64,000 nucleotides of DNA from the NCBI RefSeq assembly GCF_003790525.1, contig NZ_CP033635.1; one strand, 5' to 3'. Position 1 is the first letter of the stretch; every line of letters begins with the position of its first letter. Below are positions 20,285 to 20,311 of this stretch, in pieces. Source of the stretch: Escherichia coli (lineage in GTDB: Bacteria; Pseudomonadota; Gammaproteobacteria; Enterobacterales; Enterobacteriaceae). A program made the translations under genes and the position numbers. The notes under the pieces are model-generated. The model saw only the letters and a list, made by a program, of their open reading frames with translations. It ran no database searches and was not told the DNA's origin.

Positions 20285-20311
20285 ATTAATTCATAATAAA
20301 TATGAATTAAT
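20285..20311. repeat. perfect 11-bp-arm palindrome attaattcata-N5-tatgaattaat just after selB
   Basis: Read directly from sequence. Confidence 0.5.

Follow-up and report, generated by a model that had tools for sequence, protein, structure and literature searches.

An allele-specific palindrome and its conserved arms between selB and yiaY in Escherichia coli

The selB-yiaY intergenic region

The 64-kb stretch of DNA analysed here (the window) is from Escherichia coli SMS-3-5 and is 100% identical to NC_010498.1 in reverse complement. In this stretch selB is followed by yiaY, and a Fic-family gene that is missing in K-12 and then aldB lie 3' of yiaY (Table 1). The spacer between selB and yiaY contains the palindrome ATTAATTCATAATAAATATGAATTAAT, which consists of two 11-bp arms that are 100% complementary and a 5-nt centre (ATTAATTCATA-ATAAA-TATGAATTAAT). 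Seven nucleotides separate it from the selB stop codon (TAA, positions 20275-20277), the palindrome beginning at the eighth base past the stop. The yiaY ATG follows 157-183 bp downstream of it, and the terminator of the selAB transcript lies in between. The initial annotation of the window had described a 27-bp palindrome with perfect 11-bp arms 8 bp after the selB stop, with yiaY downstream on the same strand. The palindrome is present as described, and its placement agrees with both the open reading frames and the annotation. No feature is annotated at the palindrome in the RefSeq records inspected.

Table 1. Features in and around the selB-yiaY spacer (positions in the window)
Feature	Position	Strand	Remarks
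selB CDS, 614 aa	18433..20277	+	ORF list and RefSeq annotation of the identical SMS-3-5 region
Two-allele AT-rich segment, 80% AT	20278..20400	.	SMS-3-5 and K-12 22.6% divergent
27-bp perfect palindrome	20285..20311	.	arms 20285-20295 and 20301-20311; centre ATAAA 20296-20300
Left half-site ATTAATTCA	20285..20293	.	outer 7 bp invariant in Escherichia, Citrobacter and Pseudocitrobacter (alignment and conservation scores)
Fast-evolving centre	20296..20302	.	differs among E. coli alleles, E. albertii and Citrobacter
Right half-site TGAATTAAT and 3' flank ACAAAA	20303..20317	.	most widely conserved block
Intrinsic terminator of the selAB transcript	20338..20370	+	GCACGTTA...TAACGTGC, then TTTTT
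Second perfect palindrome, A/T only	20368..20390	.	TTTATTAAAA-ATA-TTTTAATAAA; overlaps the terminator T-tract
Conserved yiaY-proximal region	20401..20467	+	includes GATCATATTTT; 3.0% divergent from K-12
yiaY CDS, 383 aa	20468..21619	+	Fe-dependent alcohol / L-threonine dehydrogenase; ORF list and RefSeq

The separate terminator downstream of the palindrome, which had also been proposed from the sequence, is real. Its stem pairs positions 20339-20346 with 20358-20365 (-16.4 kcal/mol, z = -5.3), and six of the eight pairs covary. A scan with consensus terminators missed the 20338-20370 hairpin because its loop is 11 nt long. The second palindrome of the spacer (Table 1) is found only in the SMS-3-5-type allele, 57 bp from the first, and forms a weaker DNA hairpin (-5.0 kcal/mol, z = -2.7). 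The promoter and 5' untranslated region of yiaY are presumably located in the conserved segment that precedes the gene. Predicted yiaY promoters bear the names yiaYp4 and yiaYp6.

The 64 kb contain eight perfect inverted repeats whose arms measure at least 10 and whose loops measure at most 10, and most of these resemble G+C-rich terminators. Two of the eight fall in the 190-bp selB-yiaY spacer, and both are nearly pure A/T. In 5000 dinucleotide-preserving shuffles of this spacer (74% AT), the probability of an arm of at least 11 bp was 0.0038 and that of two repeats with arms of at least 10 bp was 0.0002, so that the palindrome exceeds the local expectation, these values applying to one feature that was chosen out of the whole window. 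Perfect inverted repeats with 11-bp arms are over-represented 20-25 fold in the non-coding DNA of E. coli generally (PMC5941160).

Two alleles of the element within E. coli

Of 5426 complete E. coli genomes, 1262 (23%) carry the exact palindrome, each in one copy. Approximately 75% of the genomes are only 80-90% identical over a 61-nt query, and the sequenced examples of this majority allele, which include K-12 and O157:H7, carry ATTAATTAA(G/T)TTTTAAAATAAATTAAT. The perfect palindrome is thus an allele-specific form. The initial annotation had looked to conservation across strains as a measure of function; the perfect palindrome is not conserved in this sense, while the outer arms are.

The two alleles differ most in the segment that holds the element. 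SMS-3-5 and K-12 diverge by 2.9% in selB, 3.4% in yiaY and 3.0% in the region just upstream of yiaY (20401-20467), and by 28 of 124 positions (22.6%) in 20278-20400. The arms of the palindrome are islands of identity within this hot spot. SMS-3-5 and K-12 agree at all of the outer 7 bp of both arms and throughout the flank ACAAAAT, and they differ at six or seven positions of the 13-nt centre. An inversion of the centre between the alleles was considered, and hand comparison was uninformative as seven of the 13 positions match in either orientation. In the K-12/O157 allele (approximately 75% of genomes) both the C and the G of the arms are lost, which indicates that the full half-site is dispensable in E. 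coli. The terminator differs between the alleles by compensatory changes (GCACGTTA/TAACGTGC versus GCACATTG/CAATGTGC). In one strain an IS1 element is inserted a few bases from the palindrome.

The element is a single-copy feature of the chromosome. Each of 5402 genomes contained a single match to the 61-nt query, and each of 1262 genomes a single match to a 31-nt query; neither query matched a plasmid. A genome-wide search for the same palindrome, suggested in the initial annotation, therefore returns one copy per carrier genome (1262 E. coli genomes). This rules out a dispersed repeat or the end of a mobile element. The palindrome shares with REP/BIME and ERIC sequences its intergenic position in the transcribed 3' region of an enterobacterial operon, but it differs from them in being single-copy and AT-rich and in lacking sequence relatives elsewhere in the 5402 genomes.

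Conservation of the arms in related genera

Junctions of selB and yiaY were collected by scanning a genome collection with the YiaY protein. Further junctions were taken from metagenomes, which were scanned with a degenerate pattern of the C-terminus of SelB, and the two scans together gave 73 distinct downstream sequences. The spacer is approximately 170-191 bp long across genera wherever yiaY follows selB. The element is missing from lineages with other genes after selB, one of which (L141, L156) retains a remnant. The forms found in the lineages are listed in Table 2; alignment of the AT-rich spacer is ambiguous by a few columns, especially in Kluyvera.

Table 2. Forms of the element and their hairpin energies
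Lineage	Form	Arm/loop (bp/nt)	Hairpin energy (kcal/mol)
E. coli A (window)	ATTAATTCATAATAAATATGAATTAAT	11/5	-8.7
E. coli O157	majority allele	13/1, one mismatch	-2.5
E. coli K-12	majority allele		-0.9
E. albertii	ATTAATTAATG-TTAAT-CATGAATTAAT		-5.0
Citrobacter	ATTAATTCA-N9-TGAATTAAT-ACAAAA	9/9	-6.0 (C. youngae)
Citrobacter-like L161	ATTAATTCATAT-AAA-ATATGAATTAAT	12/3, perfect	-8.8
Pseudocitrobacter	ATTAATTTA-N9-TGAATTAAT		-3.0
Metagenome lineages X1-X4 (four)	right block AATGAAWTRATMC retained, left arm decayed		0 (X1)
Kluyvera-like L091	AATTGATATA-GAAAA-TATATCAATT; different perfect palindrome at the same place	10/5, perfect	-7.8
Remaining Kluyvera-like sequences	imperfect

The mean majority fraction over 13 lineages is 0.85 and 0.86 in the two arms and 0.81 in the ACAAAA flank. 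The centre and the stretch between the stop codon and the first arm each reach 0.64, and the stretch before the terminator 0.66. The stems of the terminator have values of 0.77 and 0.84, and the last 15 nt of selB 0.79. Invariant columns were counted in six representatives (two E. coli alleles, E. albertii, two Citrobacter and Pseudocitrobacter), and 16 of 18 columns are invariant in the arms, 14 of 85 (16%) in the other non-coding sequence and one of nine in the centre (Fisher p = 7e-9), a strong but informal result since the test was picked with the alignment already in view and takes no account of phylogeny. The right half-site and its flank persist even in lineages in which the left arm has decayed. 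As judged from these alignments, the conserved unit is a bipartite AT-rich dyad, ATTAATTCA-N9-TGAATTAAT-ACAAAA, and not the perfect palindrome. Conserved half-sites around a free spacer, as found here, are typical of operators. Selection on the sequence would hold the outer arms constant and allow the centre to drift, and the palindrome of the window would be the SMS-3-5-type allele of a dyad that follows the selB stop codon and precedes the selAB terminator. Part of the arm conservation over such closely related genera could stem from a locally low mutation rate. The AATT cores are spaced 21 bp apart in the Kluyvera-like lineages, versus 17 elsewhere, which argues against recognition by a rigid dimer.

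Origin of the perfect form

The centre of the element turns over quickly and in Escherichia has nonetheless stayed partly self-complementary. The inner pair 34/40 is A-T, T-A or G-C across three Escherichia lineages, and in O157 the pairing extends to 13 bp with one mismatch. This pattern at the inner positions fits selection for dyad symmetry and template-switch correction of quasipalindromes equally well. The latter process has been described for E. coli (PMC7202029; PMC5941160), and Lavi and coworkers proposed it in 2018 to explain why perfect inverted repeats are in excess in this species (PMC5941160). The palindrome resembles the inverted repeats of that model in being perfect, non-coding and equipped with 11-bp arms, and its orthologues are either imperfect or, in sister lineages, perfect in a different way. 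The different perfect versions in L161 (12/3) and L091 (10/5) support template switching, and the inner perfect pairs are probably a product of such palindrome correction. By this account the arms would have grown from 9 to 11 bp through a lineage-specific correction of an imperfect inverted repeat rather than in response to any need for a hairpin.

The same process may be taken further, to a doubtful but serious alternative in which the whole element is a functionless by-product of an AT-rich, fast-evolving spacer, where template switching perfects imperfect repeats and the conservation is historical. The restriction of the perfect form to 23% of E. coli genomes is consistent with this, as is the presence of a second pure-A/T perfect palindrome 57 bp away in the same allele only. 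Despite the rapid change of the centre, perfect or near-perfect versions that differ from each other occur in separate lineages. Perfect repeats with 11-bp arms are in 20-25 fold excess in E. coli non-coding DNA, and template switching has been proposed as their source (PMC5941160; PMC7202029). Moreover, ATTAAT is its own reverse complement, so that two copies of it give a 6-bp inverted repeat automatically. However, mutation bias leaves unexplained the identity of the arms and of the non-palindromic ACAAAA flank across three genera; template switching alone does not predict conservation of either in sequence. The arms and flank are also identical between E. coli alleles whose surroundings diverge by 22.6%, and the right arm is kept where the left arm has decayed.

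Pairing, hairpin stability and the selAB 3' untranslated region

The palindrome and the terminator were compared in an alignment of 24 sequences. In the terminator helix six of eight pairs show double-sided changes and 94% of cells are paired, whereas in the palindrome helix two of 11 pairs show double-sided changes and 78% of cells are paired. Five pairs of the palindrome depart from pairing by mismatches alone, mostly A-A and G-A, and 12 cells contain U-G or G-U wobbles. The seven outer pairs do not vary at all in the clade formed by Escherichia, Citrobacter and Pseudocitrobacter. RNAalifold predicts the terminator as the sole structure and omits the palindrome. A stable fold is not shared by all carriers, the energies ranging from 0 in X1 to -8.8 kcal/mol in L161 (Table 2). 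Taken together, the pair counts, the RNAalifold prediction and the hairpin energies indicate that the outer arms are conserved as sequence and not as pairs. The element is also independent of the terminator, as Pseudocitrobacter carries an unrelated hairpin in place of the terminator and has kept the arms.

These data bear on the proposal that the element acts as an AU-rich RNA hairpin in the 3' untranslated region of selAB, serving stability or processing of the 3' end or providing a platform for an RNA-binding protein. The element is indeed inside the transcribed region (the stop codon ends at 20277 and the T-tract of the terminator spans 20366-20370), and the SMS-3-5-type allele is predicted to form a hairpin of -8.7 kcal/mol (z = -5.6). 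Hairpins of -5 to -8.8 kcal/mol are predicted for L161, L091, C. youngae and E. albertii, and L091 has a perfect palindrome of a different sequence at the same place. Several one-sided changes give wobbles on the plus strand (the 12 cells), and pair 34/40 occurs as A-U, U-A and G-C. Nevertheless, the hairpin is effectively gone in approximately 75% of E. coli (-0.9 kcal/mol in K-12 and -2.5 kcal/mol in O157, z approximately 0) and in X1; the weak covariation, the predominance of A-A or G-A mismatches and the RNAalifold prediction likewise speak against it, and no Rfam family matches the element. A stem with a single G-C pair so near the stop codon would presumably be opened by every terminating ribosome. 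A role as an RNA hairpin is accordingly considered unlikely, although the sizeable hairpins of several lineages leave a structural role in RNA or DNA some probability.

Comparison with known classes of element

The palindrome resembles a Rho-independent terminator in being a stem-loop in the 3' untranslated region right past a stop codon, but the true terminator is 27 nt downstream, and the palindrome has no U-tract and little covariation. It contains one G-C pair in 11 (7% GC) and is followed on its 3' side by ACAAAATTTC; the single G-C pair and the lack of a U-tract show that it is not a terminator. A terminator scan reported nothing at the palindrome. A search of Rfam 15 with cmscan at E values up to 10 returned only sub-threshold chance matches. 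No site resembling the sigma-70 consensus is present in 20150-20600 on either strand, and the minus-strand TTGTAT and TATTAT were rejected as promoter elements on manual inspection since their spacing is unsuitable. Two mini-ORFs were discarded on inspection, ATG ATT AAT TCA TAA because it is not conserved in Citrobacter and ATG AAT TAA because it is not conserved in the K-12-type allele.

The 11-5-11 layout of the palindrome resembles the core sites of recombinases such as dif and lox. It is highly improbable that the element is a structural or recombination element of this kind, that is, a cruciform or recombinase core marking the junction at which yiaY was acquired, even though it is perfect and AT-rich, has the layout of such cores, forms hairpins of -7.4 and -7.1 kcal/mol in single-stranded DNA, occurs only where yiaY follows selB and not beside other downstream genes, and has an IS1 insertion a few bases away in one strain: it is present once per genome in 5402 genomes and never on plasmids, mismatches dif at 14 of 28 positions, is degraded in most E. 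coli with no accompanying rearrangement, and lies in a spacer whose synteny and length (approximately 170-191 bp) are conserved across genera, with arms that are short for extrusion in vivo. The suggestion in the initial annotation that the palindrome is prone to form cruciforms fares poorly, given arms of 11 bp, approximately -7 kcal/mol per strand and loss of the palindrome in the majority allele.

The element was compared with 20 consensus patterns of known regulators and sites (ArgR, Fur, FNR, CRP, ArcA, MetR, IHF, H-NS, Zur, NsrR, NagC/Mlc, Lrp, Fis, PmrA, KdgR, TyrR, Nac, LysR-type T-N11-A and dif), and none fitted it clearly better than it fitted mononucleotide shuffles, the comparison being one of plain consensus strings from the literature rather than a position-weight-matrix scan. 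The lowest shuffle counts were those of Zur (20 of 300 shuffles, with seven mismatches in 23) and CRP (38 of 300). The dyad carries the pentamers TGAAT and ATTCA, as do the ARG boxes of ArgR, but the pentamers of the dyad are everted and separated by a 9-bp gap and do not form TGAAT-N4-ATTCA. An ARG box was therefore rejected for its orientation and spacing; the best match has three mismatches and was equalled by 102 of 300 shuffles.

In its layout the dyad is closest to dyad operators, for example that of NikR (GTATGA-N16-TCATAC) or paired ARG boxes. Like these, it has inverted conserved half-sites at a fixed distance around a free centre, with hexamer starts approximately two helical turns apart, in non-coding DNA upstream of a regulated gene. 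It differs from them in that a terminator follows it and the start codon is more than 150 bp away. To our knowledge, no cognate regulator or binding protein of the dyad has been described.

The context of the palindrome (80% AT) and the AATT cores in both of its arms are also reminiscent of nucleation sites of H-NS and Ler. The consensus of H-NS is tCG(t/a)T(a/t)AATT, and both Ler and H-NS recognise AATT through their DNA-binding domains (PMC3219716, quoting Lang et al. 2007). In GATTAATT the left arm agrees with the 8-bp core of this consensus, the right arm carries the same core on the opposite strand, and ACGATTAATT of Pseudocitrobacter matches at nine of 10 positions. Together with its 5' neighbour (ATGATTAATT) the left arm matches eight of 10 H-NS positions, a score that is common in composition-matched shuffles. 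H-NS sites differ from the arms of the dyad in that they are normally less strictly conserved. A further parallel is that yiaY, the gene downstream, is silent in K-12 and induced by Ler. The link to H-NS, which draws on composition and on indirect literature, is suggestive but not specific.

A putative binding site upstream of yiaY

The expression of yiaY has been studied in several enteric bacteria. The gene is untranscribed in K-12 under standard laboratory culture, and the same paper reports unexplained protein occupancy where selB ends, over a cluster of seven GATC sites (PMC11741368) that corresponds to 20046-20155 in the window. In enteropathogenic E. coli (EPEC), yiaY is induced 5-9 fold by Ler (PMC3891560), and in Shigella it is induced anaerobically in an FNR-dependent manner (PMC4229854). 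A literature search found no description of the palindrome site, of a yiaY promoter or of a yiaY regulator.

The explanation that we tentatively favour is that a protein binds the two arms in a sequence-specific manner, most likely on DNA, in the AT-rich stretch that precedes the silent gene yiaY. The initial annotation had named a protein-binding site as one possibility, and this is borne out in part. The arms are conserved around a variable centre in three genera, as a binding site would be, but the element fits no known consensus, is far upstream of yiaY with a terminator between them, and occurs in a degraded form in three quarters of E. coli. For a simple operator, a place ahead of a strong terminator and at such a distance from the start of yiaY is unusual. 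The self-complementary ATTAAT hexamers of the dyad start 21 bp apart, a distance that would set them two helical turns from each other. Candidate binders may include a member of the H-NS family or another protein that binds AT-rich DNA, or a dimeric or tetrameric regulator. We infer that yiaY is the target gene and that the dyad belongs to an AT-rich regulatory or silencing region of that gene.

It is also conceivable, if somewhat unlikely, that the dyad is the operator of a regulator common to Escherichia, Citrobacter and Pseudocitrobacter, or is bound by an RNA-binding protein within the selAB 3' untranslated region, and that it switches yiaY or tunes selenocysteine insertion. If either of these proposals is correct, the E. 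coli alleles would constitute a natural regulatory polymorphism, in which the half-sites with their C and G are intact in approximately one quarter of strains and degraded in the rest.

The window was scanned for the bipartite pattern with up to three mismatches, and one extra match was found, against 0.10 expected. It is located at 55951-55977 (ATTAATTAATA-TTTAG-TATGAATTTAT, two mismatches), approximately 90 bp upstream of yiaB. In the orthologous yiaB regions of E. albertii, E. fergusonii, two Citrobacter and one further genome, the right block ATGAATKTATTCTGAAA is kept and the dyad is not. An operator shared by yiaY and yiaB was not adopted because only the right half is conserved outside Escherichia, and the match upstream of yiaB is an unconfirmed lead rather than evidence of a regulon.

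Significance of the selB-yiaY dyad

Should the arms prove to be a genuine binding site, they would provide a handle on the control of yiaY, a conserved and normally silent gene without a described regulator, and would represent a regulatory site with two very different alleles in one species. If the element is neutral, it would be a clear natural example of the way imperfect inverted repeats are made perfect within AT-rich spacers. Either way the consequence would be local, concerning one gene pair and familiar kinds of element, namely a conserved intergenic dyad and a perfect short inverted repeat.

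Divergence of the selB-yiaY spacer

The spacer that follows selB in Escherichia coli (selB 3' untranslated region, terminator and AT-rich spacer) exists as two deeply divergent alleles, which split at about 24% versus 75% among 5400 genomes. SMS-3-5 and K-12 differ by 22.6% across this interval while the flanking genes differ by only about 3%. The two-allele state may be of ancient origin, result from introgression, or stem from a mutation hot spot in this segment. A second palindrome within the spacer, made up of A and T only, is confined to the SMS-3-5-type allele.

Features of the window, with coordinates
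Feature	Coordinates	Sequence	Location or remark
AT-rich island	4474-6411		largest of the window
GATC (Dam) cluster	20046-20155		selB 3' end
Divergent spacer	20278-20400
Second perfect palindrome, A/T only	20368-20390	TTTATTAAAA-ATA-TTTTAATAAA	overlaps terminator T-tract
yiaY-proximal element	20401-20411	GATCATATTTT	about 60 bp upstream of yiaY ATG
Perfect palindrome, 13-bp arms	21663-21696	AACTATCTCAAAA-N8-TTTTGAGATAGTT	precedes Fic-family gene
Fic-family protein gene	21749-23044		between yiaY and aldB; absent from K-12
Dyad-like site	55951-55977	ATTAATTAATA-TTTAG-TATGAATTTAT	about 90 bp upstream of yiaB

Within the window, GATC sites are clustered most densely at the selB 3' end, with seven in 110 bp. 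In K-12, dam-dependent changes in RNA polymerase and protein occupancy are reported at this cluster, for which no binding protein is known (preprint, PMC11741368). The largest AT-rich island, which lies elsewhere in the window, extends for about 2 kb as a series of stretches whose AT content is 75% or higher.

The palindrome in other genomes

In E. coli 2017.15.02CC (sequence L003, 3120-3900), an IS1 insertion falls precisely on the stop codon of selB and converts it from TAA to TAG. The accompanying deletion runs from the main palindrome downstream of selB through yiaY, as far as a truncated YhcH/YjgK/YiaL-family gene adjoining yiaK. Since both are deleted, the palindrome element and yiaY are dispensable in this strain. 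In Pseudocitrobacter (sequences L014 and L137), a G+C-rich hairpin unrelated to the selAB terminator, GGATGCGC...GCGCATCC, has taken that terminator's place approximately 60-110 nt past the selB stop. The upstream dyad arms are retained in both sequences despite this replacement, and the left arm contains the selB stop codon.

The site upstream of yiaB shares the 11-5-11 layout of the main palindrome and has two mismatches to the conserved half-sites, one hit against 0.10 hits expected. Its conservation across genera is limited to the right block, ATGAATKTATTCTGAAA.

A conserved element upstream of yiaY

The yiaY-proximal element is kept from E. coli to Kluyvera and is recognisable in Serratia, where selB lies apart from it. 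It probably forms a core part of the yiaY promoter or serves as a regulatory site.
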